Source: Betaproteobacteria bacterium (GTDB lineage Bacteria > Pseudomonadota > Gammaproteobacteria > Burkholderiales > SG8-39). Taken from it: a DNA stretch of 64,000 nucleotides. A model generated the notes under the pieces. The model made no database searches. It worked only from the letters and a program-made list of their open reading frames with translations, and had not been told where the DNA came from. This document shows positions 2,986 through 18,495 of the stretch, one piece after another. The position numbers and the translations under genes are program-made. Location: positions 1,627 to 65,626 of the forward strand of contig JAOUIL010000007.1 of NCBI GenBank assembly GCA_029883975.1, read 5' to 3'. Within the stretch, counting starts at the first letter, position 1, and each line of letters opens with the position of its first letter.

Positions 2986-4181
2986 GCGCGCTTCCTGTCC
3001 TCGTGCTCGGCGGCGGCATCGGCGGCCTGGCCGCGTCGCTCGCGCTGGCGAGGAAGGGCTGCCGCGTGCGCCTGTTCGAGCAGGGCTCCGAGCTGAAGGA
3101 GATCGGCGCCGGCATCCAGCTCGGGCCGAACGTCTACCACATGTTCGAGGTGCTCGGCCTGACCGGCGCGATCGAGCGCTGGTCGGCGCACCCCGAGAAC
3201 CTCATCATGATGGACGCGCTCACCGGCGAGGAGGTGACGCGCATCCCCGTGGGCAGCGGGGCGTTCAGGAAGCGCTTCCGCGGCTACCAGTACGGCGTGA
3301 TCCACCGCGGCGACCTCTACCAGGTGCTGCTCGAGGCCTGCCGCGCCGAAAAGAACATCGAGCTGAACGAAAAGAGGAAGGGCCTCGCCTTCGAGGACAA
3401 GGGCGAGCGGATCGTCCTGCGCATGGAAGGCGGCGAAGCGATCGAGGGCGCGTGCCTCATCGGCGCGGACGGCCTGTGGTCGAGGGTGCGCGCGCAGATC
3501 CTCGGCGACGGCAAGCCGCGCGTCTCGGGCCACATCGCCTACCGCGCCGTGCTGCCGCGCGCCGAGGTGCCCGGCGACCTGTGGCAGAACAACGTCGTGC
3601 TGTGGGCGGGCCCCAGGACGCACCTCGTGCACTATCCCTTGCGCCGCGGCGAGCTCTACAACCTGGTCGCGGTCTTCCACAGCGACAAGTACGAGGAGGG
3701 CTGGGACGTCTACGGCGATCCGCAGGAGCTCGAGCGCAAGTTCGCCAACGAGCGCCCGGAGGTGCAGCGCCTGCTCGCCAAGATCAACGTGTGGAAGATG
3801 TGGGTGCTGTGCGACCGCGAGCCGGCGCGGCACTGGTCGAAGGGCCGCGTCACGCTGCTGGGTGACGCCGCGCACCCGACGCTGCAGTACCTCGCGCAGG
3901 GCGCCAATATGGCGATCGAGGATGCGGTGGTGCTCGCCGCCTGGGCGGAAATCACGAGCTTCGACTGGGAGAAGACCTTCAAGCGCTACGAGGATGCGCG
4001 TTACAAGAGGACGGCGCGCGTGCAGATCATGTCGCGCTACTACGGCGACGCGTACCACGCCGCGGGGGTCGTGCGCGAGCTGAGGAACGACGTGCTCGCC
4101 CCCAGGCCCGGCGCCGCGCCCGACTTCGAGGGCGTGGCGTGGCTGTACGACGGCATCGAGGTGCCTCAGCCGAAGAGGTGA
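2982..4181 (+). CDS. FAD-dependent aromatic monooxygenase, 3-hydroxybenzoate 6-hydroxylase / salicylate hydroxylase-like
   Basis: GTG start overlaps the upstream stop (GTGA at 2982..2985). Motifs present: GGGIGGLAASLAL (GxGxxG), GADGLWSRVR, and GDAAHPTLQYLAQGANMAIEDA. The track ORF 1449..4181 carries a spurious 5' extension. Confidence 0.8.
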   Translation: MSALPVLVLGGGIGGLAASLALARKGCRVRLFEQGSELKEIGAGIQLGPNVYHMFEVLGLTGAIERWSAHPENLIMMDALTGEEVTRIPVGSGAFRKRFRGYQYGVIHRGDLYQVLLEACRAEKNIELNEKRKGLAFEDKGERIVLRMEGGEAIEGACLIGADGLWSRVRAQILGDGKPRVSGHIAYRAVLPRAEVPGDLWQNNVVLWAGPRTHLVHYPLRRGELYNLVAVFHSDKYEEGWDVYGDPQELERKFANERPEVQRLLAKINVWKMWVLCDREPARHWSKGRVTLLGDAAHPTLQYLAQGANMAIEDAVVLAAWAEITSFDWEKTFKRYEDARYKRTARVQIMSRYYGDAYHAAGVVRELRNDVLAPRPGAAPDFEGVAWLYDGIEVPQPKR

Positions 4182-5551
4182 TCGAGCACCAGCTGCTTGA
4201 ACGCGGTGGCCTGCACGGTCCCCGCGGTCAGCAGGTCGCCGCGCGAGCTTATGACGAGCGGCCCGTGCGTCGGGTCGTCGGTCAGCCGCCCGTGCGAGCC
4301 CTTGACCAGGGCCGTGTCCCTGAGCGAGATGACGTCCATCAGCGTGCGAAAGCCGAGCTTCCTCTTGGCGAGCCGCCAGACGCTGGAAAGCTTCGGCAGC
4401 GCGAGCGCCGGGTCGAAGAACAGCTCCACCGGGTCGTAGCCCGGCTTGCGGTGGATGTCCACCGTGCGCGCGAAATCAGGCGCGCGAGCGTCGTCGAGCC
4501 AGTAGTAGTAGCTGAACCAGCGGTCGGCCTTCGAGATGGCGACCAGCTCGCCCGCGCGCTCGTGGTCGAGGCCCATCGCCTGCTTGCCGGCGTCGTCCAG
4601 CACGCGCTCCACGCCCTCCAGCTCTTCCAGCAGCGCGCGCACCGCGTGCAGGCGGCTGCGGTCGTTCACATAGACGTGCGCGATCTGGTGGTCGGCGACG
4701 GCGAAGGCGGCGCTCGCGCCCGGGTCGAGGATCTCGCGCCCGTGCTCCTCCGGTCGCACGGCGACCAGGCCCGCCTCGCGCAGCGCGCGGTTGATGTGCA
4801 CGGCGTCCGTCACCGGCGTGATGCCGTACTCGGAGACGACGATCACGTGGCGCCCGCTCGCCGCCGCGGCGTCGATCAGCGTGCCGCACGCGGCGTCCAG
4901 CTCGCGCAGGTCCTGCTGCACGCGCGGGTGGGACGTGTCGGGGCCGAGGCGCTGCAGGTTGTAGTCGAGGTGCGGCAGGTAGGCGAGCGTCAGCGTGGGA
5001 TCGCGCGTTGCCATGATGTGCAGCGTGGCCTGCGCGATCCAGTCCGTGGAGCTGATGTCGGTGAGCGGGCCCCAGAACTTGAACAGCGGAAACGCCCCGA
5101 GCTTCGCGTCCAGCTCGTCGTGCAGCGCGTAGGGATGCGCGTAGTGGTCGGGGATCTTGCGCCCGTCCGCCGGGTACATCGGGCGCGGCGTCGCGCTCCA
5201 GTCGGCGCTCGAGTACATGTTGTACCACCAGAACATCTGCGCGCAGGTGAATCCGGGGTCGCGCGCCTTCGCCGCCTCCCAGACCTTCTCGCCCGCCACC
5301 AGGCGGTTCGACTGGCGCCACAGCCAGACCTCCGACAGGTCGCGGAAATACCAGCCGTTCGCCACGATGCCGTGGCCGCTCGGCGCGAGCCCGGTGAGCA
5401 GCGTGGACTGCACCGTGCAGGTGACCGCGGGCACGACGGTGTCGAGCGGGCGCAGCGCGCCGCGCGCGGCGAGTCGCTGCAAGTTGGGCGTAAACGCGCC
5501 AACCAGCGCGGGCGACAGGCCGACCGCGAGTATGACGAGCGTGGGGTGCAC
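4166..5551 (-). CDS. eboF: EboF: alkaline phosphatase / nucleotide pyrophosphatase-phosphodiesterase superfamily protein
   Basis: The nucleophile region PAVTCTVQSTLLTGLAPSGHGIVANGWYFRD and the YLPHLDY motif fit the AP/NPP superfamily. It is divergent from eboA. I preferred the in-frame GTG at 5551 (VHPTLVILAVGLS...) because family members start a few residues before the V-I-x-x-x-GL strand. The track start at 5599 (also GTG) would overlap eboA. Confidence 0.8.
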   Translation of the reverse strand: MHPTLVILAVGLSPALVGAFTPNLQRLAARGALRPLDTVVPAVTCTVQSTLLTGLAPSGHGIVANGWYFRDLSEVWLWRQSNRLVAGEKVWEAAKARDPGFTCAQMFWWYNMYSSADWSATPRPMYPADGRKIPDHYAHPYALHDELDAKLGAFPLFKFWGPLTDISSTDWIAQATLHIMATRDPTLTLAYLPHLDYNLQRLGPDTSHPRVQQDLRELDAACGTLIDAAAASGRHVIVVSEYGITPVTDAVHINRALREAGLVAVRPEEHGREILDPGASAAFAVADHQIAHVYVNDRSRLHAVRALLEELEGVERVLDDAGKQAMGLDHERAGELVAISKADRWFSYYYWLDDARAPDFARTVDIHRKPGYDPVELFFDPALALPKLSSVWRLAKRKLGFRTLMDVISLRDTALVKGSHGRLTDDPTHGPLVISSRGDLLTAGTVQATAFKQLVLDHLFG

Positions 5552-5557
5552 GCGGCG

Positions 5558-5563
5558 TAGAAT
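5558..5563 (+). promoter_or_regulatory. -10-like hexamer TAGAAT upstream of eboA (no convincing -35)
   Basis: TAGAAT lies in the 32-bp eboF/eboA divergent spacer. It is followed by the RBS GGAGGGG (5575..5581) and ATG 5584. Confidence 0.25.
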
Positions 5564-5583
5564 ATCAGTCCCATGGAGGGGCA

Positions 5584-6441
5584 ATGAGCGAGGCGGCACG
5601 GACTCTGCTGCGCGGTTGGCTGGGCCGGCGGCTCGACGCGCAGCGCGCGGCGTGGCTCGATGCGCAGGTCGCCACGCTGCGCCAGGATGCGGCCGACGAG
5701 ACGCTCGACATCGCGCTCGGCATGGTGCCGCGCAAGCTCGGCAAGGCGGCGCTCGAGCTGAGGGACGAGGACCTCGCGGCGGCGCGCGCTGCGGTCCCCG
5801 GATGGGACCCGCGCGGCTGGAGCGTGACCGACGCCGCGCGCATCCTGCTGCTCGCCGGGCTGCCCGCGGGCGGCAAGCCCTTCGTCGAGCGCTTCAGGAC
5901 ACTGTGCCAGACGGCCGACGTCGCCGAACTCGAGACGCTGTACCGCGGCCTGCCGCTCTACCCGGAGCCCGCGTCGCTGCTCGACCAGGTGGGCGAGGGC
6001 CTGCGCAGCAACATGCGCAGCGTGTTCGAGGCGATCGCGCACCGCAACCCGTATCCGCGCACCCATTTCGACGCGCACCGCTGGAACCACATGGTGCTGA
6101 AGGCGCTGTTCATCGGCAGCCCGCTCGCGCCGATCCAGGGGCTGGACGAGCGCGCCAACGCCGAGCTGGCGCGCATCATGCTCGACTTCGCGCACGAGCG
6201 CTGGGCGGCGGGGCGCCCGGTGCCGTTCGAGATCTGGCGCTGCGTCGGGCCGTTCGCCGAAGGCAGCGCGGTCGACGACCTGGCGCGGGCGCTCGCGAGC
6301 GACGAGGCGACCGTGCGGCGCGCGGCGGCGCTTGCGCTCGCGGCGAGCCCGGACCGGCGCGCGGCCAAGCTGCTGCAGGACTTTCCCGCGCTCGCCGGCG
6401 ACATCAGCGGCAAGCGGCTCACCTGGGCAACGCTGCAGTAA
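5584..6441 (+). CDS. eboA: EboA-like protein (function unknown)
   Basis: 285-aa ORF with a strong RBS and no catalytic motif I can name. The call rests on its position directly upstream of the TatD-type eboB, within a locus that contains all other ebo families. Confidence 0.65.
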   Translation: MSEAARTLLRGWLGRRLDAQRAAWLDAQVATLRQDAADETLDIALGMVPRKLGKAALELRDEDLAAARAAVPGWDPRGWSVTDAARILLLAGLPAGGKPFVERFRTLCQTADVAELETLYRGLPLYPEPASLLDQVGEGLRSNMRSVFEAIAHRNPYPRTHFDAHRWNHMVLKALFIGSPLAPIQGLDERANAELARIMLDFAHERWAAGRPVPFEIWRCVGPFAEGSAVDDLARALASDEATVRRAAALALAASPDRRAAKLLQDFPALAGDISGKRLTWATLQ

Positions 6442-6470
6442 ACTTGTTCGCTCCCTCCGAGGATCCCGCC

Positions 6471-7397
6471 ATGATGCTCATCGACCCGCACGCGCACATG
6501 ATCTCGCGCACCACCGACGACTACGAGGCGATGGCGGCGGCCGGCGTGGTGGCGGTCATCGAGCCGGCGTTCTGGATCGGCCAGCCGCGCACCAACGTCG
6601 GCTCGTACCTCGACTACCTGTCGTCGATCGTCGGCTTCGAGCGCTTCCGCGCGAGCCAGTTCGGCATCCGCCACTACTGCACCATCGGCCTCAACTCCAA
6701 GGAAGCGAACAACGAGGCGCTCGCCGAAGGCGTGATGGAGCTCATCCCGCGCTTCGCGCTGAAGGAGGGCGTGGTGGCGATCGGCGAGATCGGCTACGAC
6801 GAGCAGACGGCGCTCGAGGACAAGTACTTCCGCGCGCAGCTCGAGCTCGCCAAGCAGCTCGACCTGCCGGTCATGATCCACACCCCGCACCGCGACAAGA
6901 AGCGCGGCACCTCGCGCTCGATGGACGTGTGCGACGAGCACGGCCTCGAGCCGTCCAAGGTGGTGGTCGACCACAACAACGAGGAGACGGTGAAGGAGAC
7001 GCTCGAGCGCGGCTACTGGGCGGCGTTCTCCATCTACCCGAGCACCAAGATGGGCAACGCGCGCATGGTGGAGATCCTGCGCCAGTACGGCGCCAGGCAG
7101 GTCATCGTGGACTCGGCCTGCGACTGGGGCATCTCCGAGCCGCTCGGCGTGGCCAAGACCGCGAAGCTTGCACTGCAGCAAGGAATCCCTGAAGCCGACG
7201 TCAGGCTGGCCTGCTACCAGAACGCGCTCACTGCCTATGGGCAGAGCGGGCAGATCAAGGAAGAGGACTGGCTCAACCCGGTCGCCATCGACCAGCGCGC
7301 TGTCTTTGAAGGGAATTCCATCCTGCGCGGCGGGCGCGAGCCGAAGGTCGAGGCGGGCAAGAACCGCCGCACGCTGGACGATTTGATCATCGAGTAG
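6471..7397 (+). CDS. eboB: EboB: TatD-family metal-dependent hydrolase
   Basis: MMLIDPHAHMISR (HxH metal motif), GEIGYDE and VMIHTPH fit the TatD/amidohydrolase fold. The real start is ATG 6471; the track ORF 5157..7397 has a long spurious extension. Confidence 0.85.
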   Translation: MMLIDPHAHMISRTTDDYEAMAAAGVVAVIEPAFWIGQPRTNVGSYLDYLSSIVGFERFRASQFGIRHYCTIGLNSKEANNEALAEGVMELIPRFALKEGVVAIGEIGYDEQTALEDKYFRAQLELAKQLDLPVMIHTPHRDKKRGTSRSMDVCDEHGLEPSKVVVDHNNEETVKETLERGYWAAFSIYPSTKMGNARMVEILRQYGARQVIVDSACDWGISEPLGVAKTAKLALQQGIPEADVRLACYQNALTAYGQSGQIKEEDWLNPVAIDQRAVFEGNSILRGGREPKVEAGKNRRTLDDLIIE

Positions 7398-7402
7398 CGT
7401 GC

Positions 7403-7423
7403 GCGGCGCGCATGCCGCGCCGC
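7403..7423 (+). terminator. GC hairpin after eboB (possible terminator, no U-tract)
   Basis: GCGGCGCG-CATGC-CGCGCCGC forms an 8-bp perfect stem starting 6 nt after the eboB stop. Confidence 0.3.
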
Positions 7424-7505
7424 CGCAATGCGGGATTTCGCGTTCCTGTCGCTGAGCGAAACGCCGCTCACGGCGCCGCCCTGCGGCGCGTTCATGACAC
7501 GTATA

Positions 7506-7526
7506 CTGAACTTTCCTGACGTTCAG
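7506..7526. promoter_or_regulatory. inverted repeat CTGAAC-N9-GTTCAG overlapping a TATACT -10-like box
   Basis: Seen in the 233-nt gap upstream of the PQQ dehydrogenase gene. TATACT lies at 7502..7507. No good -35 was found. Confidence 0.25.
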
Positions 7527-7630
7527 GGAGGCGGCGGTCGCCGGAAGGCTCGGTGCTCGCCAGGCGCATCGCAGAGGGCCCCGGCGATGCGCGCGGAGGA
7601 GGGGCACAAGATTTCTTCTGGAGGGATCCG

Positions 7631-8929
7631 ATGAAACTCGCAAAGGTCGGTGGAGTGCTGTCCGCCGCCGTCGTGCTCGCGGTCGCGGGCGGGGCGGCGA
7701 TGGCGCAGACCAAGATCAAGCTGGAGCCGCTGGTCACGGCCATCAACACGCCGCTCGCGATGGTGCAGCCGGCGGGCGACGCCCGCATGTTCATCATCGA
7801 GCAGAACGGCAGGGTGAAGATCCTGGAGGGCGGCAAGCTGCGCCCGACGCCGTTCCTCGACATCCGCAGCAAGATCCCGGCGCTGCACCACGACTTCGAC
7901 GAGCGCGGCCTGCTCGGCATCGCCTTCCACCCGAAGTTCAAGGACAACGGCAAGTTCTACGTCGCCTACAGCGCGCACCTGGACTACCAGGCGGACCTCG
8001 GGCAGATGCTGTGGTACTCGCACAGCAACGTGGTCGAGGAGTACACCGTCTCCAAGGGCGACAAGAACACCGCGGACCCGAGCTCGGCGCGGCGCATCCA
8101 CTCGGTGGCCTGGCCGCAGTTCAACCACAACGGCCACTGGATCGGCTTCGGCAAGGACGGCAAGCTGTACATCTCGATGGGTGACGGCGGCTACGCCAAC
8201 GACTGGGGCATCGGCCACAACCCCGCCCTCGGCAACGGGCAGGACATGTCGACGCAGCTGGGCAAGATCCTGCGCATCGATGTGGACGCGCGCACCGGCG
8301 ACAAGCCCTACGGCATCCCGTCCGACAACCCGTTTGTCGGCAACAAGAGCGCCGCGCCGGAGATCTGGGCGAGCGGCCTGCGCAACCCGTGGCGCTGCTC
8401 GTTCGACACGGGAAGCGGCGACCTGTTCTGCGGCGACGTGCAGCAGAACAGCTATGAGGCGATCAAGATCATCGGCAAGGGCCAGAACATGGGCTGGCGG
8501 CGTGTGGAAGGCATCATGCGCTGCTTCGACTACCTGAAGCCCGATGACCACCCGGCCAACTGCGACAAGGCCGGCATCACGCCCGCGATCCTCGAGTACA
8601 ACAACTGCACGGCCAAGCCCCAGGGCTGCAAGGGGATCTCGGTCACGGGCGGCTACGTGTACCAGGGCAAGCACGCGGCGTGGAAGGGCAAGTACATCTT
8701 CGGCGACTGGAGCAAGTCCTTCGGCGAGATGGACGGCCAGATCTTCTTCGCCACCAAGGGCAAGGACGGCAAGTGGAGCATGGAAGTCGCGGAAGTCACC
8801 AACATGAAGGGCAAGCTGCCCTACGTGCTGGCGTTCGCGCAGGACAATGCGGGCGAGGTCTACGCGCTCACTTCCATCACCACGGGCCCGAACGGCTCGC
8901 TCGACACGATCTACAAGATCGTTCCCTGA
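7631..8929 (+). CDS. periplasmic PQQ-dependent sugar dehydrogenase (soluble glucose/sorbosone dehydrogenase beta-propeller family)
   Basis: The RBS GGAGGGA precedes ATG 7631. Signal peptide: MKLAKVGGVLSAAVVLAVAGGAAMAQ. Family motifs: GLLGIAFHP, NHNGHWIGFGKDGKLYISMGDGG, GLRNPWR. Confidence 0.85.
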   Translation: MKLAKVGGVLSAAVVLAVAGGAAMAQTKIKLEPLVTAINTPLAMVQPAGDARMFIIEQNGRVKILEGGKLRPTPFLDIRSKIPALHHDFDERGLLGIAFHPKFKDNGKFYVAYSAHLDYQADLGQMLWYSHSNVVEEYTVSKGDKNTADPSSARRIHSVAWPQFNHNGHWIGFGKDGKLYISMGDGGYANDWGIGHNPALGNGQDMSTQLGKILRIDVDARTGDKPYGIPSDNPFVGNKSAAPEIWASGLRNPWRCSFDTGSGDLFCGDVQQNSYEAIKIIGKGQNMGWRRVEGIMRCFDYLKPDDHPANCDKAGITPAILEYNNCTAKPQGCKGISVTGGYVYQGKHAAWKGKYIFGDWSKSFGEMDGQIFFATKGKDGKWSMEVAEVTNMKGKLPYVLAFAQDNAGEVYALTSITTGPNGSLDTIYKIVP

Positions 8930-8942
8930 GCCGGCTGCAAGC

Positions 8943-8980
8943 CGCCGCCGCCGCGCTCGTGCGCGGCGGCGGCGCGTTTT
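8943..8980 (+). terminator. rho-independent terminator-like hairpin after the PQQ dehydrogenase gene
   Basis: 14-bp perfect GC stem (CGCCGCCGCCGCGC / GCGCGGCGGCGGCG) with loop TCGT, followed by CGTTTT. Confidence 0.6.
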
Positions 8981-9002
8981 CCGGCGTAGTAACATTTGGT
9001 GC

Positions 9003-9356
9003 ATGAGAACGACGTGCGGACCCTTGCGCATCGCCTGCGCGGCCGCGGTGTTGCTGGCCGCGACGACGCTGCAGGCGCAGGAGAAGGCCCCGGTGTTCGA
9101 CAAGGCCTACCTGAGCAGCAAGAAGAACATCGAGCTCGGCAGGAGCGTCTGGGAAGGGCAGTGCCGCCATTGCCACGGCGCGGCGGCCTACCCGGGCAAG
9201 GCGCCCAAGCTCAATCCGGGGCAGCTGGAGCCGGGCTTCATCTACGACCGCGTGACCTACGGCTTCGGCAAGATGCCGGCCTGGAAGGACGTGTTCTCGG
9301 TCGAGCAGCGCAAGGGCGTCGTCGCCTTCATCAAGAGCGACGACTTCTCGCCCTAG
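9003..9356 (+). CDS. class I c-type cytochrome (periplasmic)
   Basis: 117 aa from ATG 9003. It has a signal peptide ...AAAVLLAATTLQAQE, the heme-binding CRHCH (CxxCH) motif, and a distal Met region GFGKMPAW. Confidence 0.75.
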   Translation: MRTTCGPLRIACAAAVLLAATTLQAQEKAPVFDKAYLSSKKNIELGRSVWEGQCRHCHGAAAYPGKAPKLNPGQLEPGFIYDRVTYGFGKMPAWKDVFSVEQRKGVVAFIKSDDFSP

Positions 9357-9709
9357 GCGGCGGGCTTGCGCAGCAACGCGCCGGCGAGGACCACGAGCAG
9401 CACGGCGAGGCCGATCATCACGCCCATGCCCTCGCGCGCGGTTTCCTCCACCCACCACACTTCTTTCAGCCAGAAGCCGGGCACGGTGGGCCAGTAGAAC
9501 ACCATGGCGCCGACGCCCGCAGCGACCGTGGCCCAAAGCAGCCGCTCCCCGGCGACCGACGCGACGCGCGCCGGACGGAAGGCCGCGGCGAACGCCCAGG
9601 CGGCGGGGATCAGGTAGATGACGATCCACAGCAGCGCGTCCGGGTCGTTGTATTGCACGACTGCGAAGGCCGCCATCAGCAACCCGAGTAGGATCAGGAC
9701 GTAACGCAT
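9353..9709 (-). CDS. small four-helix integral membrane protein (resembles TMEM220-type proteins)
   Basis: 118 aa, MRYVLILLGLLMAAFAVVQYNDPD...; four hydrophobic segments and G/C-dominated third codon positions. Only the last 118 codons of track ORF 9353..10915 look real. The family assignment is from memory of the VQYNDPD N-terminus. Confidence 0.6.
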   Translation of the reverse strand: MRYVLILLGLLMAAFAVVQYNDPDALLWIVIYLIPAAWAFAAAFRPARVASVAGERLLWATVAAGVGAMVFYWPTVPGFWLKEVWWVEETAREGMGVMIGLAVLLVVLAGALLRKPAA

Positions 9710-10897
9710 ATGAAGCATTCTACTCAGACGCGCACGGCCACGCACTGGCAGCGCTTCTCGGTGCCCTACGAGTTCCCGGTCGTGTTCACCGAGGGCGTGT
9801 TCGATCCGGACAATCCGGCGCTGCGCGAGGCGTTCAGCCGCCTGGAGCCGGCAAAGCGCCATCGCGCCGTGTTCTTCGTCGATGACGGCCTGCAGGCGGG
9901 CGGCGCGCCGCTGATCGAGGCGATCCAGGCGTACGCGGCGCGCCACGCCGACGCGCTCGAGCTCGCCTGCCCGCCGGTCGCGCTGCCCGGCGGCGAAAAG
10001 ATCAAGACCGACCTGCACTTCGTCGAGAGCATCCAGCAGAAGCTGTTCGACCTGCACCTCGACCGTCACTCGTACGTGGTCGCGGTGGGCGGCGGCGCGG
10101 TGCTGGACGCGGTGGGCCTCGTGGCGGCGACCACCCACCGCGGCGTGCGCCACATCCGCGTGCCCACCACGGTGCTGGCGCAGAACGATTCGGGTGTGGG
10201 CGTGAAGAACGGCGTCAACCTGCTTGGCGTGAAGAATTTCGTCGGCACGTTCGCGCCGCCGTTCGCGGTGCTGAACGACCACGACTTCATCGACTCGCTG
10301 CCGGACCGCGACAAGGTCGCCGGCATGGCCGAGGCGGTCAAGGTGGCGCTGATCCGCGACGCGGAGTTCTTCGGCTGGCTCGAGCGCCACATGGACGACC
10401 TCGCCACCTTCGGGCGCGCGGCGATGCAGCACATGATTCGCCGCTGCGCCGAGCTGCACATGCGCCAGATCGGCCAGGGCGGCGACCCGTTCGAGACCGG
10501 CAGCGCCCGGCCCCTGGACTACGGGCACTGGTCGGCGCACAAGCTCGAGAGCCTGACGCGCCACCACGTGCGCCACGGCGAGGCGGTGGCCATCGGCATG
10601 GCGCTCGATGCGCGCTACTCGGTGCTCGCCGGCCTGCTGCCGGCGGGCGAGGAGCTGCGCATCTGCGCGCTGCTCGAGTACCTCGGCTTCGACCTCTGGC
10701 ACCCGGCGCTCGAGCGCACCGGTACGAGCGGCGAGTGGAGCATCCTCGAGGGCCTGCGTGACTTCCAGGAGCATCTCGGCGGCGAGCTGACCATCACTTT
10801 GCTGGGCGGCATCGGCGTCGGCGTCGAGGTGCACGAGATCGACCACGCGCGCATGCGCCAGGCGATGGCGTGGCTGAAAGCGCGCGCGGGCGGCTGA
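9710..10897 (+). CDS. eboD: EboD: 3-dehydroquinate synthase-like sugar phosphate cyclase
   Basis: 395 aa with DHQS-fold motifs VVAVGGGAVLDAVG, RVPTTVLAQNDSGVGVKNGVN and HGEAVAIGM. It is translationally coupled to eboE. Confidence 0.85.
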   Translation: MKHSTQTRTATHWQRFSVPYEFPVVFTEGVFDPDNPALREAFSRLEPAKRHRAVFFVDDGLQAGGAPLIEAIQAYAARHADALELACPPVALPGGEKIKTDLHFVESIQQKLFDLHLDRHSYVVAVGGGAVLDAVGLVAATTHRGVRHIRVPTTVLAQNDSGVGVKNGVNLLGVKNFVGTFAPPFAVLNDHDFIDSLPDRDKVAGMAEAVKVALIRDAEFFGWLERHMDDLATFGRAAMQHMIRRCAELHMRQIGQGGDPFETGSARPLDYGHWSAHKLESLTRHHVRHGEAVAIGMALDARYSVLAGLLPAGEELRICALLEYLGFDLWHPALERTGTSGEWSILEGLRDFQEHLGGELTITLLGGIGVGVEVHEIDHARMRQAMAWLKARAGG

Positions 10898-12090
10898 TGC
10901 ATCTCCGGTCCGCACGCGACCTCGGACACCTCACCTACTGCACGAACATCCACGCCGGCGAGCCGCTGGATGACGTGATGGCGAGCCTGGCGCGCCACCT
11001 GCCGGCGATCAAGGCGCAGGTGGCGCCCGCGCAGCCCCTCGGCGTCGGGCTGCGCCTGGGCCACGCGGCGGCCGAAGGCCTGCGCGACGCGGACGCGCTG
11101 GCGCGGCTCAAGCGCTTTCTCGCCGAAGGCGGCTACTACGTGTTCACGATCAACGGCTTTCCTTACGGTGCGTTCCATGGGCGCGCCGTGAAGGAGGACG
11201 CGTACAAGCCCGACTGGAGCGATCCGGCGCGGCTCACTTACACCGACCTGCTGGCCGACATCCTGAGCGAGCTGCTGCCTGCGGGGCAGGAGGGCAGCGT
11301 CAGCACGGTGCCGTGCACCTTCAAGCCCTGGGCCGAGGGACGGCTGGCGGCAATCACCGAGAACCTCATCCGCCACGTGGCGCATCTGGTCGGCAACGCC
11401 GCGCGCACGGGCCAGACGATCTCGCTCGCGCTCGAGCCGGAGCCGTATTGCCAGCTCGAGACCATCGAGGAGACCACCCGCTTTTTCAAGGAGCGGCTAT
11501 TCGCGCGCGCGGGCGTTGCGCGGCTCGCGGCGCTCACCGGGCTCCCGGCCGCAGCCGCCGAAGCAGCCATGCGCCGGCACATCGGCGTGTGCTACGACGT
11601 CTGCCACGCCGCAGTGGAATTCGAGGACCCGAAGGAAAGCATCGCGCGGCTGCGCACCGAGGGCATCCTGATCGGCAAGCTGCAGCTGAGCTCGGCGCTC
11701 AGGATCGCGGCGTTCGATGCGGCGAGCGCGCGCCAGCTCGCCGCCTTCGCTGAGCCGGTCTACCTGCACCAGGCGGTGCAGAAGGCCAACGGGTCCCTGA
11801 CGCGCTTCGTGGACCTGCCGCAGGCGCTCGCCGCCGGCGGCGCCGCGGCGGGCGCGGAGCTGCGCGTGCACTTCCACGTGCCGGTGTTCCTCGAGCAGAT
11901 GGAGCATTTCGGCACCACGCAGGCGTTTCTTGCGCAGATCCTCGCGCAGCACCGCGCCGAGCCGATCAGCCGCCACCTCGAGGTCGAGACCTACACCTGG
12001 GACGTCCTGCCCAAGGCCTACCGGACGGCCGAGCTCAGCACGGCGATCGCGCGCGAGCTCGACTGGGTCAAGGCGCGGCTGCTGCAGTGA
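10897..12090 (+). CDS. eboE: EboE: xylose isomerase-like TIM-barrel protein
   Basis: ATG 10897 overlaps the eboD stop (TGATG). The N-terminus HLTYCTNIHAGEPLDDV is as I recall for EboE. The track start at 10870 is probably too long. Confidence 0.75.
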   Translation: MHLRSARDLGHLTYCTNIHAGEPLDDVMASLARHLPAIKAQVAPAQPLGVGLRLGHAAAEGLRDADALARLKRFLAEGGYYVFTINGFPYGAFHGRAVKEDAYKPDWSDPARLTYTDLLADILSELLPAGQEGSVSTVPCTFKPWAEGRLAAITENLIRHVAHLVGNAARTGQTISLALEPEPYCQLETIEETTRFFKERLFARAGVARLAALTGLPAAAAEAAMRRHIGVCYDVCHAAVEFEDPKESIARLRTEGILIGKLQLSSALRIAAFDAASARQLAAFAEPVYLHQAVQKANGSLTRFVDLPQALAAGGAAAGAELRVHFHVPVFLEQMEHFGTTQAFLAQILAQHRAEPISRHLEVETYTWDVLPKAYRTAELSTAIARELDWVKARLLQ

Positions 12091-12935
12091 AGCTGCGCAG
12101 CGCGCTCGCGCTCGGCCGCGTTTCCAACCTGCCGACGGTGTGGAGCAACGCGCTCGCCGGCGCGGTGCTGGCGGGCGCCGCTGCGTTCGGCGCGCAATTC
12201 GCGGTGATGCTCGTCGCGTTCTCGCTGTTCTACACCGGCGGCATGTTCCTCAACGACGCCTTCGACGCGCCGTGGGACGCGAAGCAGCGCCCGGAGCGGC
12301 CGATTCCCGCGGGCGAGGCGAGCCGGCGCGCGGTGTTCGGCTGGGGCTTCGGCATGATGGCGCTCGGCGTCGCGCTGCTCGCGTGGATCGGCGTGGCGCC
12401 CGCGCTCGCCGGCGCCGCGCTGGCGGCGACGATCACGTACTACGACTGGCATCACAAGGGCAACGTCTTCAGCCCGGTGGTCATGGGCCTGTGCCGCGTG
12501 CTGGTGTACGTGTCGGCGGGCCTGTGCATCACGCGCGCGCTGCCCGAAGCGCTGTGGATCGGCGCCGCGCTGATGCTCTGCTACCTCATCGGCCTCACCT
12601 ATATCGCGAAGCAGGAGAACCTCGGCAGGGTGGAGAATCTCTGGCCGCTCGCCTTTCTCGCGGCGCCCGTGGCCTACGGCGCCTGGCTGGCGCTTGCGCA
12701 GCCGGTCGTGGGGCTCTTCTGGCTCTTTTTTGCCGGCTGGATGCTGGTGGCGCTCTGGTACCTGCGGCGGCGCCGCAAGGGCGATATCCCGCGCGCGGTG
12801 GTGAGCCTGATCGCCGGCATCTCGCTGCTGGATGCGCTGCTGATCGCGGGAACCGGCGCGCTCGCGCTCGCCGTCGTTGCGCTCGCCGGCTTCGGCGTGA
12901 CGCTGTTCTTCCAGCGCTACGTCGCGGGGACGTAG
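12087..12935 (+). CDS. eboC: EboC: UbiA-family membrane prenyltransferase
   Basis: GTG 12087 overlaps the eboE stop (GTGA). It has the first Asp-rich motif LNDAFDAPWD (NDxxDxxxD) and is hydrophobic throughout with multiple TM helices. Confidence 0.85.
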   Translation: MKLRSALALGRVSNLPTVWSNALAGAVLAGAAAFGAQFAVMLVAFSLFYTGGMFLNDAFDAPWDAKQRPERPIPAGEASRRAVFGWGFGMMALGVALLAWIGVAPALAGAALAATITYYDWHHKGNVFSPVVMGLCRVLVYVSAGLCITRALPEALWIGAALMLCYLIGLTYIAKQENLGRVENLWPLAFLAAPVAYGAWLALAQPVVGLFWLFFAGWMLVALWYLRRRRKGDIPRAVVSLIAGISLLDALLIAGTGALALAVVALAGFGVTLFFQRYVAGT

Positions 12936-12943
12936 GAGCGGGT

Positions 12944-12969
12944 AACGGGGGAACCTGGGTTCCCCTGTT
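12944..12969. terminator. hairpin between convergent eboC and the outer-membrane protein gene (possible bidirectional terminator)
   Basis: AACGGGGGAAC-CTGG-GTTCCCCTGTT forms an 11-bp stem with one G-T pair. It sits in the 42-nt convergent gap. Confidence 0.45.
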
Positions 12970-12977
12970 CCGAGCGG

Positions 12978-13868
12978 TTACTGGAAGCGGTAGAAGTAGG
13001 TCGCCCGGACAATCGTGCCGCTGTACTTGTTCCCGCTCTGCGGGCCTTCCTCCGCCTTCGCGCTGTAGCCCGAGAGCAGGAAATCGAGCGCATGCCCGCC
13101 GGCGAACGGCAGGTTGACGCCGAGCTCGTAGATCAGGGTGCTGGCGTCCACGCGGTACGAGTCGGTGGGGCGGCCGAGCTCCTCGGCGAACGCCGGGTCG
13201 GTGGCCCACGCGCCGGACAGGCCGCCGACGGTGACGGAGTTGAAGACCTGGTCGCCGCTCACCTGCGTGAGGCGAGCGTAGGCGGTATTCCTCGTGCCGA
13301 AACGGTAATCGAGGCTCGCCCAGAAGCGCGTGTTGTCCATGTCGTAGATCGCGACTTCCCCGGGCCGGCCCGGGTCGCCGCCGTTGCGGGTGTCCCAGGC
13401 CACGCCCGCGCCGAGCCGGACGCGGTCCGTGACATGGCTGCCGACGCTGCCTTCGATCGTGGCGATCGTGCCGTCGCGCAGCTCGCTGTCCGAGTGCTGC
13501 AGCCAGACGAGGTTGCCCGCCACCTCGAAGATGGGGGAGCTGAAGTTCAGTCCCGGCTGGGTGCGCCAGGCCGCGCGGCCCGACAAGGCGAGGTTGCTCA
13601 GGTCGCTGAAGGTGACGAACTGGCTGTAGCGCGCTGCTCCGCGGAAGACGGCGCCGCTGCGCGGGCCGAGGAGTACGCTGCGCACCGCGGAGCCCTCGAC
13701 CGACAGGATGCTGTCGCTCTCGACGTCCGCGTCGTACAGCCCGCGCGTGACGTTGTCGTCGACCATCGCATCCGCGGATATCCCGTAGCGCCACCCTTCC
13801 GCGGCGTGCGCGGACGACAGGGCCGCGGCGACGAGCAGCGCGGCGGCGATCGACAGGTGGCGCGGCAT
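12978..13868 (-). CDS. outer-membrane beta-barrel protein (family not recognised)
   Basis: 296 aa from ATG 13868. Signal peptide MPRHLSIAAALLVAAALSSAHA-AEG, alternating-polarity strands, and a C-terminal aromatic signature ATYFYRFQ. Confidence 0.6.
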   Translation of the reverse strand: MPRHLSIAAALLVAAALSSAHAAEGWRYGISADAMVDDNVTRGLYDADVESDSILSVEGSAVRSVLLGPRSGAVFRGAARYSQFVTFSDLSNLALSGRAAWRTQPGLNFSSPIFEVAGNLVWLQHSDSELRDGTIATIEGSVGSHVTDRVRLGAGVAWDTRNGGDPGRPGEVAIYDMDNTRFWASLDYRFGTRNTAYARLTQVSGDQVFNSVTVGGLSGAWATDPAFAEELGRPTDSYRVDASTLIYELGVNLPFAGGHALDFLLSGYSAKAEEGPQSGNKYSGTIVRATYFYRFQ

Positions 13869-13938
13869 CAAGCTTCCCCGGCGGTGGGCTTGCGCGTGAT
13901 AATACGTCGCCCATCGGTCCGGCGAAAGAGCGATCTCC

Positions 13939-14649
13939 ATGGCCAAGCGTACTGCTGATGCGGAAGACCCGAGGCGCGCATTCCTGCTGCAGGCGCTCGC
14001 CGCCGGCCTGCTCGCGGCGGGCGGCGCCGGCGTGGCGCGCGCGCAGTTTTTCGGCCGCCGCCCGCAGCCGCTGCCGGCCGGGCGCTCGGTGTACGAGGCG
14101 AGCGGCGCGGTAACGGTGAACGGACAGCCCGTGTCGCCGCAGACGCGCATCGGCGCCGGCGCGAGCATCGAGACCGGCAAGGGGGCGCAGCTCATCTTCG
14201 TGGTGGGCAGCGACGCTTTCCTGCTGCGCGGCAACAGCCGCCTCGAGCTCGCCGGGCAGGGCTTCGCGCTCAGCGTGATGCGCCTCGCCACCGGCGCGCT
14301 GCTCTCGGTATTCGGCCGCGGCGACCGGCGCGTCGTCACGCCGACCTCGACGGTCGGCATCCGTGGCACGGGCCTGTACGTCGAGTCCGAGCCCGAGCGC
14401 AGCTACGTCTGCACCTGCTATGGCGAGGTGAACATCGCGGCGCCGGACGACCCGGCGGTGGCCGAGCGCATCGTCTCCAAGCACCACGACGCGCCGCGCT
14501 ACGTGCTGAAGAGCGGCGCGCGGCGCATCCAGCCCGCGCCGTTCATCAACCACACGGACGTCGAGCTGGCGCTGATCGAGGCGCTGGTCGGGCGCACGCC
14601 GCCCTTCTCGCTGTTCGACGAGGATTACGGCGGCGCGCGCCGCTACTAA
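13939..14649 (+). CDS. FecR-domain protein with a twin-arginine-like signal
   Basis: 236 aa with DPRRAFLLQALAAGLLAAGGAGVARA (Tat-like) and a FecR-type beta-sandwich segment TPTSTVGIRGTGLYVE. There is no anti-sigma N-domain. Confidence 0.55.
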   Translation: MAKRTADAEDPRRAFLLQALAAGLLAAGGAGVARAQFFGRRPQPLPAGRSVYEASGAVTVNGQPVSPQTRIGAGASIETGKGAQLIFVVGSDAFLLRGNSRLELAGQGFALSVMRLATGALLSVFGRGDRRVVTPTSTVGIRGTGLYVESEPERSYVCTCYGEVNIAAPDDPAVAERIVSKHHDAPRYVLKSGARRIQPAPFINHTDVELALIEALVGRTPPFSLFDEDYGGARRY

Positions 14650-14669
14650 CCGGAAAGAGGAGGGAGGAG

Positions 14670-15878
14670 ATGACCATGTCGGGATGGAGACTGCGGGTGC
14701 TCGCCGTCGCCGCCGCGCTCGCCGCGGGCGGCGCGCAGGCGCAGACGGTGAAGGTCGGGGTCGTGCTGCCCTTTACGGGCGTGGGCGCGGAATTCGGGCA
14801 GCAGGTCGATCGCGGCATGCAGATGTTCCTCAAGCTCAACCCCGGCGCCTTCGCGCCCTACAAGGTGGAGCTGGTGAAGCGCGACTCGAAGAACCCGAGC
14901 GGCGCGGAGGCCAAGACCGCGGTGCAGGAGCTGATCGCGCAGGAAAAAGTCGACATCCTCGCCGGGTTCATCTACTCGCCCGATGCGATCGCCTCGGCGC
15001 CGCTGGCGACCGCTGCGAAGAAGCCGATGATCGTCATGAACGCGGGCACCGCCTGGATCACGAACCTGTCGCCGATGATCTCGCGCGTCTCGTTCTCCAT
15101 GTGGCACTCGGGCTACGCGATGGGCGAGGCGGCGGCGAAGACGCTGCAGGCGAAGACGGCGGTGGTCGGCTACTCCGACTTCCCGCCGGGCAAGGACAGC
15201 CTGGACGCGTTCAGGCGCGGCTTCGAGTCGAGCGGCGGCAAGGTCGTGGATGCGATCCCGATGGGCGGCCCCGGGCAGGTGCCCGACTTCACGCCCTTCT
15301 TCCAGCGCGCCAAGGACAGGAAGCCCGACGTGTTCTACGTGTTCGTGCCTTCGGGCGACCACGCAGTGGCGGTCACCAAGGCCTACGCGGCGCTCGGGAT
15401 GCGGCAGGCGGGCATCAAGCTGATCGGTCCCGGCGACCTGACGCCGGACCACAAGCTGCAGGCGATGGGCGACGACGCCGTGGGCCTGATCACCGCGCAC
15501 CACTACAACGCCGATCTCGACAATCCGGCCAACAAGCGCTTCGTCGCCGCGTGGAAGCAGGAGTACGGCGCCGGCGCCACGCCCGACTTCATGGGCGCGC
15601 AGGGCTACGACGGCATGGCCGCGATCGTGCATGTCGTGCGCACCCTGCAGGGCAGGATCGACCCGGACAAGGCGCAGGCGGCCCTGAAGGGCTGGAAGTA
15701 CGCCGATAGCCCGCGCGGCCCGATCATGATCGATGCGGCTACGCGCGACATCGTCATGAATGAGTACCTGAGCGAGCTGGTGAAGGTCGGCGGGCGCCTG
15801 GTGCAGAAGAACATCGGCGTCATCCCGGCCGTGAAGGACATGTGCAAGGAGCTCAAGGAAGGCAAGTGCGCGCAGTAG
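14670..15878 (+). CDS. ABC transporter substrate-binding protein (LivK / branched-chain amino acid-binding family)
   Basis: The RBS GAGGAGGGAGGAG precedes the start. It has a signal peptide and VKVGVVLPFTGVGAEFGQQ typical of type I periplasmic binding proteins. Confidence 0.85.
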   Translation: MTMSGWRLRVLAVAAALAAGGAQAQTVKVGVVLPFTGVGAEFGQQVDRGMQMFLKLNPGAFAPYKVELVKRDSKNPSGAEAKTAVQELIAQEKVDILAGFIYSPDAIASAPLATAAKKPMIVMNAGTAWITNLSPMISRVSFSMWHSGYAMGEAAAKTLQAKTAVVGYSDFPPGKDSLDAFRRGFESSGGKVVDAIPMGGPGQVPDFTPFFQRAKDRKPDVFYVFVPSGDHAVAVTKAYAALGMRQAGIKLIGPGDLTPDHKLQAMGDDAVGLITAHHYNADLDNPANKRFVAAWKQEYGAGATPDFMGAQGYDGMAAIVHVVRTLQGRIDPDKAQAALKGWKYADSPRGPIMIDAATRDIVMNEYLSELVKVGGRLVQKNIGVIPAVKDMCKELKEGKCAQ

Positions 15879-15899
15879 CGCGCTAGCCGCTCCCTGCAG

Positions 15900-16763
15900 A
15901 TGGACCTGGCCAGCATCCTGCTCGGCGGGCTCGCCGCCGGCATGGTGCTGTTCATCTGCTCGGTGGGCCTGTCGGTCACCATGGGGCTGATGGGCTTCGT
16001 CAACCTCGCGCACGGCGGCTTCGCCATGCTCGGCGGCTACGTCGTGGTCTACGCCATGCGCCACTGGGGGCTGCCGTTCGGCGCGGCGCTGGCGCTCGGC
16101 TTCGGCGCAGTCGCGCTGCTGGCAGTGGCGCTCGAGCGCGCACTCTACGCGCGCCTGTACGGCGCGGGGGAGCTCGACCAGGTGCTGTTCACGATCGGCC
16201 TGGTGTTCGTCATGATCGCGCTGGTGACGCTCGGCGTGGGGCCGGAGTCGCAGCGCGTGGAGCTGCCCCCCTGGCTCGACGGCCAGAGCGACCTCGGTTT
16301 CCTCACTTACCGCACCTACAGCCTGGCGCTGATCGCGGCCGGCACGCTGCTGATGGTCGCGCTGTGGCTCGGCTTCGAGCGCACGCGCATCGGCGCGAAG
16401 ATCCGCGCCGCGGTCGACAACCGGCGCATGGCGGAATCCGTCGGCGTGGACGTGGGGCGCCTGTTCACGCTCACCTTCGCGCTCGGCAGCGGGCTGGCCG
16501 CGGTGGGCGGCGCGCTGGGCGCGGAGATCCTCGGCCTCGACCCGCAGTACCCGCTGCGCTACCTGGCCTACTTCCTCATCGTGGTGGCGGTCGGGGGCCT
16601 GGGCAAGGTGACCGGCGTGTTCTTCGCGGCGCTGCTGATCGGCGTGCTCGACTTCGTGCTGAAAATCCACTTTCCCAAGGGGGGCACGATGTTCATCTAC
16701 GCGCTCACCCTCGTGTTCCTGCTGGCGCGCCCGCAGGGCATCTTCGGCAAGCGGGGCGCATGA
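15900..16763 (+). CDS. branched-chain amino acid-type ABC permease (LivH-like)
   Basis: 287 aa with GFVNLAHGGFAMLGGY and a polytopic hydrophobic profile. Confidence 0.9.
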   Translation: MDLASILLGGLAAGMVLFICSVGLSVTMGLMGFVNLAHGGFAMLGGYVVVYAMRHWGLPFGAALALGFGAVALLAVALERALYARLYGAGELDQVLFTIGLVFVMIALVTLGVGPESQRVELPPWLDGQSDLGFLTYRTYSLALIAAGTLLMVALWLGFERTRIGAKIRAAVDNRRMAESVGVDVGRLFTLTFALGSGLAAVGGALGAEILGLDPQYPLRYLAYFLIVVAVGGLGKVTGVFFAALLIGVLDFVLKIHFPKGGTMFIYALTLVFLLARPQGIFGKRGA

Positions 16764-17743
16764 GCGCGCTGCCTGCGCTGCAGGCGCTCGCCGCGCGCCA
16801 CCGGCTGCGCTGGTGGGAGGCGCTGCCCTGGGCTGCGGGCGTCGCCTGCTTCTTCCTGTTTCCCAATTACCTGGCGTTCGGCACGCAGGTGCTGGTGACG
16901 ATCCTGTTCGCGCTGTCGCTCGACCTGGTGCTCGGCTACGCGGGCATCGTCACGCTCGGCCATGCCGCCTTCTTCGGCGCCGGCGCCTACACGGTCGGCA
17001 TGCTCGCCGCGCACTGGGGATGGACCGAGCCGCTCTCCGGCCTAGTCGCGGCGGCGCTGGTCGCCGGCGTCGTCGGCCTGCTGAGCGGCTGGGTGCTGCT
17101 GCGCACGCACGGCCTGACGCTGCTGATGCTCACGTTGTGCACCATGGCGCTGCTCGAGCAGGCGGCGAACATGTTTTCGTCGTGGACCGGGGGGTTCGAC
17201 GGCATGCCCGGGCTGTCGTACCGGCCGATCCTCGGCCTGTTCGAGTTCGACGTGCTCTATTTCCGCTCGCAGTACCTGTACGCGCTGGCGGTGCTGCTCC
17301 TGTGCTTCGCCGTCGTGCGCACCTTGGCGTACTCGCCGTTCGGCCGCAGCCTGACCGGCATCCGCGAGAACGTGCTGCGCATGCACGCGGTGGGCGCGCC
17401 GGTGCATGCGCGCCAGGTGACCGCCTACGCGGTCTCCGCCGCGCTCGCGGGCGTCGCCGGCGCGGTGTTCGTGCAGGCCACGGGCTACGTCAATCTGGCG
17501 GTGCTCGGGCTGGAGCGCGCGGCCGGCGTGCTCATCATCCTGATCCTCGGCGGCCACGGGCGGCTGTACGGCGCCTTCGTCGGCGCCGTCGTCTACATGG
17601 TGCTCGAGCACACGCTGTCCAAGGCCTATCCGACGGCGTGGCAACTCGGCCTCGGCATCGGGCTGATGCTGGTCGCGCTCTACGCGCGCAACGGCCTGCT
17701 CGGCCTGGGCGACGCGCTGCGGCGCCGCTGGAGCGCGCGATGA
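16760..17743 (+). CDS. branched-chain amino acid-type ABC permease (LivM-like)
   Basis: ATG 16760 overlaps the LivH-like stop (ATGA). Contains LVLGYAGIVTLGHAAFFGAGAY. Confidence 0.9.
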   Translation: MSALPALQALAARHRLRWWEALPWAAGVACFFLFPNYLAFGTQVLVTILFALSLDLVLGYAGIVTLGHAAFFGAGAYTVGMLAAHWGWTEPLSGLVAAALVAGVVGLLSGWVLLRTHGLTLLMLTLCTMALLEQAANMFSSWTGGFDGMPGLSYRPILGLFEFDVLYFRSQYLYALAVLLLCFAVVRTLAYSPFGRSLTGIRENVLRMHAVGAPVHARQVTAYAVSAALAGVAGAVFVQATGYVNLAVLGLERAAGVLIILILGGHGRLYGAFVGAVVYMVLEHTLSKAYPTAWQLGLGIGLMLVALYARNGLLGLGDALRRRWSAR

Positions 17744-18495
17744 TCCCGGCGCTGCTCGAAACGCAGGCGCTGTGCAGGAGCTTCGGCGCCCTGCAAGTGG
17801 CAAACAACGTCGACTTCCGCCTGGAGGCGGGCGCGCGCCATGCCCTGATCGGGCCGAACGGGGCCGGCAAGACGACCTTCGTCAACCTGCTGACCGGCGT
17901 GATCGCGCCCTCGAGCGGCCGCGTGCTGCTCGACGGCGAGGACGTCACGCGCCTCGCGCAGGCCAGGCGCGTGCAGCGCGGCATCGCGCGCACCTTCCAG
18001 ATCAACCAGCTGTTCCGCGGCCTGACGGTGCTGGAGAACGTGTGCATCGCAGTGGCCGAGCGCATGCGCGCCGGGGGCGGCATGCTGCGCCCGGCCGGGC
18101 GCCGCACGCACGTCGTGGACGAGGCGGCGCGCGTGCTGGAAACGCTGCGGCTTTCGGCCGACGCGGGCCGGCGCGTGTCCGAACTGCCCTACGGGCGCCA
18201 GCGCCTCGTGGAGATCGCCATTGCGCTCGGGCTCGCGCCGCGCGTGCTGCTGCTGGACGAGCCCGCGGCCGGCATTCCGAGCGCCGAGAGCCACATCCTG
18301 CTGGACGCGATCGCGGGACTGCCGCGCGACATCGCGGTGCTGATCATCGAGCACGACATGGACCTGGTGTTCCGCTTCGCGCAGCGCATCACGGTGCTGG
18401 TGAGCGGGACGTTGTTCGCCGAAGGCACGCCCGCCGAGATCGCCGGCAACCGCGAGGTGCGCGAAGTCTACCTGGGAGCCGCGCGCGATGGCTGA
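17740..18495 (+). CDS. ABC transporter ATP-binding protein (LivG-like)
   Basis: ATG 17740 overlaps the upstream stop (ATGA). Walker A GPNGAGKTT and Walker B LLLDEPAAG are present. Confidence 0.9.
   Translation: MIPALLETQALCRSFGALQVANNVDFRLEAGARHALIGPNGAGKTTFVNLLTGVIAPSSGRVLLDGEDVTRLAQARRVQRGIARTFQINQLFRGLTVLENVCIAVAERMRAGGGMLRPAGRRTHVVDEAARVLETLRLSADAGRRVSELPYGRQRLVEIAIALGLAPRVLLLDEPAAGIPSAESHILLDAIAGLPRDIAVLIIEHDMDLVFRFAQRITVLVSGTLFAEGTPAEIAGNREVREVYLGAARDG

Follow-up and report, generated by a model that had tools for sequence, protein, structure and literature searches.

A complete FABDEC-type ebo cluster with an embedded dehydrogenase, cytochrome c and TMEM220 gene set in an uncultured soil Burkholderiales bacterium

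We analyzed a 64,000-nt stretch of DNA (the window; approximately 70% G+C) from an uncultured soil Burkholderiales bacterium, in which the genes of an ebo cluster, eboA to eboF, are found. Because bare open reading frames (ORFs) are uninformative at this base composition, family searches and G+C content by codon position were used instead. Nine consecutive genes fill positions 4166 to 12935, with all six ebo families inside 8.8 kb and three further genes, for a dehydrogenase, a cytochrome c and a membrane protein, between eboB and eboD (Table 1). The G+C content at the third codon position was 0.87 to 0.94 in five of the frames, and internal stops were absent. A preliminary description of this DNA had proposed a complete ebo cluster; its six family calls and their coordinates were all borne out by Pfam and NCBIfam searches, the six families being intact and close together, and the overlaps that it had read as translational coupling, TGATG where the eboE start overlaps the eboD stop and GTGA where the eboC start overlaps the eboE stop, are both present on direct reading. 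We regard the identity of this locus as an ebo cluster as practically certain.

Table 1. Coordinates of the genes and other features at the ebo locus of the window
Feature	Position	Strand	Description
eboF	4166..5551	-	AP/NPP-superfamily phosphodiesterase; Pfam Phosphodiest PF01663, 1.1e-62
eboA	5584..6441	+	EboA domain with C-terminal HEAT-like extension; NF035938 EboA_domain 177.6 bits (cut-off 50)
eboB	6471..7397	+	TatD-like metal-dependent hydrolase; PF01026, 1.4e-16
G	7631..8929	+	Secreted GSDH-family (pyrroloquinoline quinone [PQQ]-type) sugar dehydrogenase, six-bladed propeller; PF07995, 3.7e-34
Hairpin	8943..8974	+	Perfect 14-bp G+C hairpin in the G-c spacer, with GCGTTTTCC after it
c	9003..9356	+	Secreted monohaem class I cytochrome c, haem motif CRHCH; Cytochrome_CBB3 PF13442, 8.4e-14
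t	9353..9709	-	TMEM220-family membrane protein, 118 aa, four hydrophobic segments; PF15071, 1.1e-13
eboD	9710..10897	+	EboD-clade sugar phosphate cyclase; NF004852 571.9 bits (cut-off 333)
eboE	10897..12090	+	Xylose-isomerase-like TIM barrel; TIM_EboE equivalog NF035939 454.1 bits (cut-off 250), 1-379/379 covered
eboC	12087..12935	+	Intramembrane UbiA-superfamily prenyltransferase; UbiA PF01040; GTG start
3-Hydroxybenzoate 6-monooxygenase gene	3003-4181		Converges on eboF, 16-bp overlap; NF006021 484.6 bits (cut-off 459)

The cyclase and the prenyltransferase were compared with both ebo-linked and housekeeping enzymes. EboD of the window is 54 to 69% identical (411 to 558 bits, BLASTP) to ebo-linked cyclases of Alpha-, Beta- and Gammaproteobacteria and of a Myxococcales genome, versus 37% identity and 144 bits to Escherichia coli AroB, and it scored 217.5 against the aroB equivalog model TIGR01357, under the cut-off of 305. 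Its scores against solved structures in the PDB were 116 bits for EEVS, 98 for DDGS and 107 for DOIS, with 3-dehydroquinate synthases as the nearest solved structures. Likewise, EboC is 41 to 51% identical to proteobacterial ebo-linked C proteins, versus 26 bits to E. coli UbiA and no significant match to MenA by BLASTP. The distinction of the two proteins from AroB and from UbiA or MenA, drawn in the preliminary description, therefore stands by identity and, for EboD, by model scores. The EboC motif NDAFDAPWD occupies residues 56 to 64, where N56-D57-x-x-D60-x-x-x-D64 is the conserved Asp-rich Mg2+/diphosphate motif; N56, D57, D60 and D64 are invariant in 9 ebo-linked EboC sequences, the Streptomyces type included, and R71-P72-I73-P74 (RPIP) is invariant across ebo-linked homologues. 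In NCBI annotation, the ebo-linked proteobacterial homologues are named just "UbiA family prenyltransferase."

As NCBIfam has no dedicated models for EboB and EboF, their membership is based on synteny together with 61 to 93% identity to ebo-linked homologues. eboB is the best-conserved gene of the set, with 86 to 93% identity in Burkholderiales and approximately 80% in Alphaproteobacteria, and its product begins with MMLIDPHAHM, which contains an N-terminal HxH (HAH). EboF, which has no signal peptide, shares 61 to 85% identity with its counterparts in ebo loci; its reading frame is open up to a GTG at 5599, where a start would overlap eboA, and translation more likely begins at the GTG at 5551. 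Residues 220 to 266 of EboA gave a weak match to HEAT_2. The divergent starts of eboF and eboA are 32 bp apart (5552-5583; 20 bp in the comparison locus L093), a spacer that leaves almost no space for two promoters.

The ebo comparison set comprised 80 loci, fetched with EboE among 185,579 species-representative genomes and labeled L001 and so on. All 80 carry further ebo genes, and the sets are complete wherever the contig is long enough; the six genes are thus kept as a unit, the point on which the preliminary description had asked for a survey of synteny. The nearest loci are all metagenome-assembled Burkholderiales/Betaproteobacteria, with EboE identities of 94, 90 and 87% in the best three, and L001 is collinear with window positions 7591 to 21817 at 89.3% nucleotide identity. 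Writing G for the GSDH dehydrogenase, c for the cytochrome c, t for the TMEM220 protein and a prime for the opposite strand, the nine-gene order F'ABGct'DEC is identical in ten relatives (L002, L003, L009, L013, L017, L027, L029, L031, L032 and L093), and eight relatives have F'ABDE(C), namely, seven with the full F'ABDEC and L028, which ends before eboC. With this nine-gene order repeated in at least ten other Burkholderiales assemblies, a chance arrangement is not at issue, and the two sets of relatives together make the order lineage-typical, not unusual. A second large protein search with EboE returned relatives of at least 78% identity only, the F'ABDEC clade and Pseudomonas being beyond its reach.

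The gene order had been described as non-canonical and rearranged, with eboF divergent from eboA. That divergence is found in the window and in its relatives, but FABDEC is already a named type: Yurchenko et al. (2016) gave ABDEFC, FABDEC and DECABF as the typical arrangements outside Bacteroidetes and Cyanobacteria, with FABDEC entered for Burkholderiales bacterium JOSHI_001 in their Table S2 (PMC5133447). The JOSHI_001 operon and the window share the six families, their order and the taxonomic order, with the A-B and D-E-C blocks kept. Because five of the six JOSHI_001 proteins have closely spaced protein accession numbers, that cluster appears compact, whereas the window adds three genes between eboB and eboD. 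Insertions into ebo clusters were noted in 2016 and left unanalyzed (PMC5133447), and no analysis of a recurrent dehydrogenase/cytochrome c/TMEM220 partner was found in the accessible ebo literature, which leaves the primary papers on the Pseudomonas EDB cluster outside.

Some of the fetched loci have features of their own. A truncated eboF in L024 (4551-7367) leads directly into eboE-eboC, with A, B and D absent between them, and this locus looks like a deletion derivative of a FABDEC cluster. The EboE proteins of L005, L009, L024, L025, L029 and L030 are 73 to 83% identical to those of Burkholderiales, yet the loci were deposited as "uncultured Enterobacteriaceae" or "Planctomycetota bacterium" metagenome-assembled genomes (MAGs); judged by these identities, they are probably mislabeled or mis-binned.

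The stretch between eboB and eboD, regarded in the preliminary description as an interruption of the cluster, holds three genuine genes that form a module conserved beside ebo genes in three proteobacterial classes. G carries a Sec-type signal peptide, MKLAKVGGVLSAAVVLAVAGGAAMA/Q (the signal peptides of G and c, both of Sec type, were judged by eye). E. coli YliI and Acinetobacter sGDH, soluble PQQ aldose/sorbosone dehydrogenases, resemble G in belonging to the GSDH fold family, in being secreted and in having a class I cytochrome c partner; G is only 23% identical to YliI and, unlike YliI and sGDH, has a Cys-rich insertion, a TMEM220 partner and a place beside ebo genes. Residues N165-H166-x-G168 and R251-N252-P253 of G are invariant with YliI, and NHxG, GxRNP and NxGW are common to both proteins; we take these to be the catalytic-His and PQQ-site motifs, with residue roles as in sGDH. 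Its motifs make G a probable true quinoprotein. Among solved structures, the best relative of G is the propeller of vertebrate Hedgehog-interacting protein (HHIP; 1.3e-38, 136 bits), compared to 59 bits for bacterial sGDH and 36 bits for YliI; the RNP and NxGW motifs are kept in G, not in HHIP. The cytochrome gene follows G in every G-carrying locus, and its product is presumed to be the electron acceptor of G.

Within the module, the hairpin between G and c looks like a terminator or attenuator and could attenuate read-through into the cytochrome gene. The genes c and t are convergent, and their stops share two bases (TAG at 9354-9356 for c; 9353-9355 on the minus strand for t). At 9707-9712, the start codons of t and eboD abut with no intergenic base (cat followed directly by atg), and the same zero gap is present in L001, L011, L021, L025 and L093; with such an arrangement, the promoter of each gene must sit inside the coding sequence of the other.

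The association of the module with ebo genes was counted in ebo loci of at least 15 kb (n = 36), with at least 50% identity required of a G orthologue. G and c are present in 27 of the 36, the distance from G to an ebo gene having a median of 654 bp and a maximum of 2041 bp. This adjacency spans no fewer than 12 gene orders in Alpha-, Beta- and Gammaproteobacteria, including F'AB-Gct'-DEC, AB-Gct'-DECF', t'DECF'AB-Gc, DEF'-Gc, Gc-EAB and Gc-DECABF, and ECF'-c'G'-B'A'D' in a Granulosicoccaceae genome. Among all 80 loci, G orthologues lie beside ebo genes in 44, and t is directly upstream of and divergent from eboD in 42, even where G-c has moved. The order (t')-D-E-F'-G-c was seen in L046, L047, L055 and L058, from Geminicoccales and unclassified Pseudomonadota MAGs; eboC, eboA and eboB are absent within 10 kb in these loci, which keep the cyclase and the redox module with no prenyltransferase nearby.

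The statement in the preliminary description that the molecule made by this pathway had not been determined is outdated. EboD is a DEI synthase, the product of which was published in 2024, as cited in a review that still calls the final ebo product unknown (PMC12904256), and EboC homologues were reported in 2022 to farnesylate hydroxyquinolines (Ubi-297/EboC, PMC9235831). In a preprint of May 2026, Kallscheuer et al. reported that the ebo genes, of which they counted 3,403 clusters in 3,304 genomes, determine thallusin, an algal growth signal (10.64898/2026.05.21.724671). They based this on the 35 strains that were tested, with ebo genes present in 27 of 27 thallusin producers and absent from 8 of 8 non-producers, on the loss of thallusin in Stieleria when eboB, C, E or F was deleted singly, on labeling of the quinoline part by L-aspartate, and on farnesylation of 6,7,8-trihydroxyquinaldate by EboC from three phyla; they identified no enzyme that oxidizes saccharoquinoline to thallusin (10.64898/2026.05.21.724671). 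The supplement of the same preprint defines a cluster by a gap of at most 6 ORFs (10.64898/2026.05.21.724671). In the window, the core genes B, C, E and F of the thallusin gene set are present, as are A and D, and the largest gap is three ORFs.

Our interpretation is that the window carries an intact FABDEC-type ebo cluster of an uncultured soil Burkholderiales bacterium that makes a saccharoquinoline/thallusin-type meroterpenoid, with G-c-t as a periplasmic redox module, and we put the probability of this reading at roughly 65%. Taken by itself, a thallusin-type product in this organism appears fairly probable. EboD, as a DEI synthase, would supply the cyclitol, which EboE, EboB, EboF and EboA would convert with L-aspartate into a trihydroxyquinoline-2-carboxylate, a model adopted from the preprint in which the steps are not apportioned among the enzymes. 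The membrane enzyme EboC would then add a farnesyl group and possibly cyclize it, yielding a saccharoquinoline/thallusin-type meroterpenoid; farnesylation was shown for EboC homologues of three phyla other than that of the window (10.64898/2026.05.21.724671). Finally, the periplasmic substrate of G-c-t may be the ebo product itself or an intermediate, with electrons passing to the cytochrome.

A more specific proposal for the module, which we consider improbable as it stands, is that G-c-t is a dedicated periplasmic partner of the ebo pathway in Proteobacteria. In one version it would oxidize the farnesylated trihydroxyquinoline and so perform the conversion of saccharoquinoline to thallusin that lacks an enzyme in the preprint; in the other, G would bind an ebo quinoline in its PQQ pocket, for the chemical reason that the 8-oxy/N1/2-carboxylate face of the quinoline mimics the metal-binding face of PQQ. 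The TMEM220 protein would help to transfer the molecule across the membrane, given that t is kept head-to-head with eboD in the 42 loci noted above. The text of the preprint does not discuss an accessory dehydrogenase/cytochrome partner, but in its Table S3, where 91 gene clusters are given as found in Maribacter producers of thallusin and not elsewhere, one entry is a cytochrome c/GSDH fusion, a weak and independent support for a redox partner of the ebo genes (10.64898/2026.05.21.724671).

Several points weigh against the reading of the locus as a thallusin-type pathway with its own redox module. The evidence linking ebo genes to thallusin is a preprint, in which the sole Pseudomonadota producer tested was Tranquillimonas and Betaproteobacteria lie outside the tested set (10.64898/2026.05.21.724671). 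The window differs from the thallusin ebo sets of the preprint in that its EboC and EboA fall under NCBIfam thresholds built around reference clades. The best two NCBIfam matches of EboC, 121.9 bits to the EboC model NF035940 (cut-off 250) and 102.1 bits to the SCO3242 family (cut-off 260), which was confirmed to be the prenyltransferase of an actinomycete ebo cluster, are both below the cut-offs, so that the protein is placed in the EboC clade by synteny, best match and invariant motifs, not at the equivalog level. Similarly, EboA scored 232 against the full-family model NF035937 EboA_family, under its cut-off of 320; as judged by these scores, EboC and EboA of the window belong to a clade diverging from the Bacteroidota/cyanobacterial references. 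With regard to the module, of eight G orthologues on long contigs (77 to 86% identical), seven belong to G-c-t or G-c operons that stand alone, ebo genes being absent within 10 kb, and the eighth is inside the ebo cluster of L093; moreover, G-c-t was next to ebo genes in none of six inspected proteobacterial plasmid ebo clusters, from the Alphaproteobacteria Ketogulonicigenium, Salipiger (two clusters), Roseivivax and Azospirillum and the betaproteobacterium Mycetohabitans.

These stand-alone copies and plasmid clusters also speak for the most serious alternative, which concerns the module only: that G-c-t has no functional relation to the ebo genes and is a passenger, a unit for general sugar oxidation in the periplasm, the position of which would come from inherited synteny and not from a shared function. 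G shows all hallmarks of an ordinary YliI-type aldose dehydrogenase, and we hold this alternative to be a real possibility, if short of an even chance. What argues against it is that the adjacency outlasts at least 12 rearrangements in three classes, always within approximately 2 kb, and that a gene for a non-homologous PQQ dehydrogenase comes after one of the Salipiger ebo clusters. Moreover, in neighbor-joining trees of G and EboE without bootstrap, six of the seven stand-alone copies of G form one clade, whose position mirrors that of the only clade in the EboE tree with F'ABDEC and no G; this suggests one excision event in one sublineage, not general independence. Matching of ebo clusters to G-c-t operons by sample was unusable, since one European Nucleotide Archive sample accession contained two different G-c-t contigs and is thus a metagenome. 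On annotated plasmids, the best match among G orthologues was 41% identical, and the one inspected neighborhood, in Pontibacter, was without ebo genes. Proteobacteria thus tend to retain G-c-t, an autonomous unit, by ebo genes in an association that is recurrent and not obligatory, and a functional link of the module with the ebo pathway is in our estimation an evenly balanced matter.

Other oxidoreductases flank ebo clusters that are without G-c-t. The Salipiger plasmid cluster mentioned above is followed by a gene for a small hypothetical protein and one for the 715-aa PQQ-dependent dehydrogenase (L089:14352-16840), and two Gfo/Idh/MocA oxidoreductase genes lie ahead of eboD on the Ketogulonicigenium plasmid (L081:6768-8814); such neighbors may represent non-orthologous replacement of the redox partner. 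Stand-alone G-c(-t) operons at L086:12257-14220, L087:11828-13798 and L094:7962-9842 adjoin TonB-dependent receptor genes, possibly by coincidence. Thallusin and 8-hydroxyquinaldate-type molecules chelate iron.

A different role for the whole cluster follows from the "metabolite traffic" model (Klicki 2018), in which a membrane-anchored prenylated cyclitol acts as a carrier lipid that ferries a metabolite across the inner membrane; G-c would then process the exported cargo. The preliminary description had likewise suggested a prenylated cyclitol or carrier lipid, which is now the weaker model, as in the preprint's model the quinoline ring is formed from cyclitol and L-aspartate before prenylation. 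EboE is still named "metabolite traffic protein" by NCBI, and the two secreted proteins inside the window's cluster fit a periplasmic end point. Set against this, EboC homologues prenylate hydroxyquinolines, not cyclitols (PMC9235831; 10.64898/2026.05.21.724671), no candidate cargo pathway adjoins the cluster in the window, and Nostoc punctiforme, on whose scytonemin the model draws, itself makes thallusin, its scytonemin effect being treated as possibly indirect (10.64898/2026.05.21.724671). The Nostoc punctiforme cluster resembles that of the window in having homologous A, B, C, E and F, with D nearby, but it is of the ABCDEF type and lies beside scytonemin genes, whereas the window has another gene order and, as the preliminary description had observed, no scytonemin context (PMC6282210). 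We consider the carrier-lipid role unlikely for this cluster.

Less likely still is a role like that of the EDB ("edible") cluster of Pseudomonas fluorescens NZI7, in which the product would have an indirect effect, serving as a cofactor or regulator through which tryptophan is channeled into indoles that repel grazers, a role compatible with thallusin-type chemistry. According to a review (PMC12904256), the EDB cluster consists of six ebo homologues and three further genes to which no function is ascribed, signal peptides being present in some of the products. E. coli expressing the cluster yields indole derivatives. By description only, the number and kind of G, c and t agree with those of these extra genes, of which they may be the counterparts; this gives six plus three genes in both clusters, with two of the three extras secreted in the window. 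The indoles, however, are deemed unlikely to be direct EDB products, and genes of tryptophan catabolism were not seen next to the cluster of the window. As for housekeeping AroB and UbiA/MenA lying by chance beside unrelated hydrolases, to which we give next to no credence, Pfam does return the generic DHQ_synthase and UbiA families alone and 3-dehydroquinate synthases are the closest solved structures to EboD, but the reading is refuted by the model scores (217.5 for aroB compared to 571.9 for NF004852), the BLASTP comparisons above and the co-conservation of the six genes in 80 loci.

The flanks of the cluster are syntenic in the closest relatives only. Upstream lie genes for an SDR protein, a DHDPS-family aldolase, a flavin mononucleotide (FMN)-dependent hydroxyacid dehydrogenase and the 3-hydroxybenzoate 6-monooxygenase, and downstream genes for two exported proteins of unknown type and a branched-chain-type ABC transporter; ten large ORFs scanned elsewhere in the window encode generic catabolic and transport proteins. 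The monooxygenase gene was rejected as a member of the cluster, as no orthologue of at least 50% identity was present in any relative and the FMN dehydrogenase gene abuts eboF in L029; an aromatic hydroxylase gene seems to have been inserted here recently, next to a pathway for a polyhydroxylated aromatic ring. Also rejected was the exported protein encoded at approximately 12978-13880 on the minus strand, which is kept in the closest relatives alone, not in other ebo loci. An Rfam scan of 3500-14000 gave no RNA family, and promoter and terminator scans gave nothing above shuffle expectation.

Altogether, the window's cluster is an intact ebo cluster of known arrangement in a new uncultured host, with a chemistry that is largely proposed in the literature, and as such it is one further case of a widespread, now partly explained system. 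With it, an abundant lineage of uncultured soil Burkholderiales joins those predicted to be capable of a thallusin-type signal. The dehydrogenase/cytochrome c/TMEM220 partner is a concrete candidate, open to testing, for the late oxidative or periplasmic side of ebo biology that lacks an explanation, and it might connect three ebo phenotypes, namely, thallusin, periplasmic maturation of scytonemin and EDB-dependent indoles.

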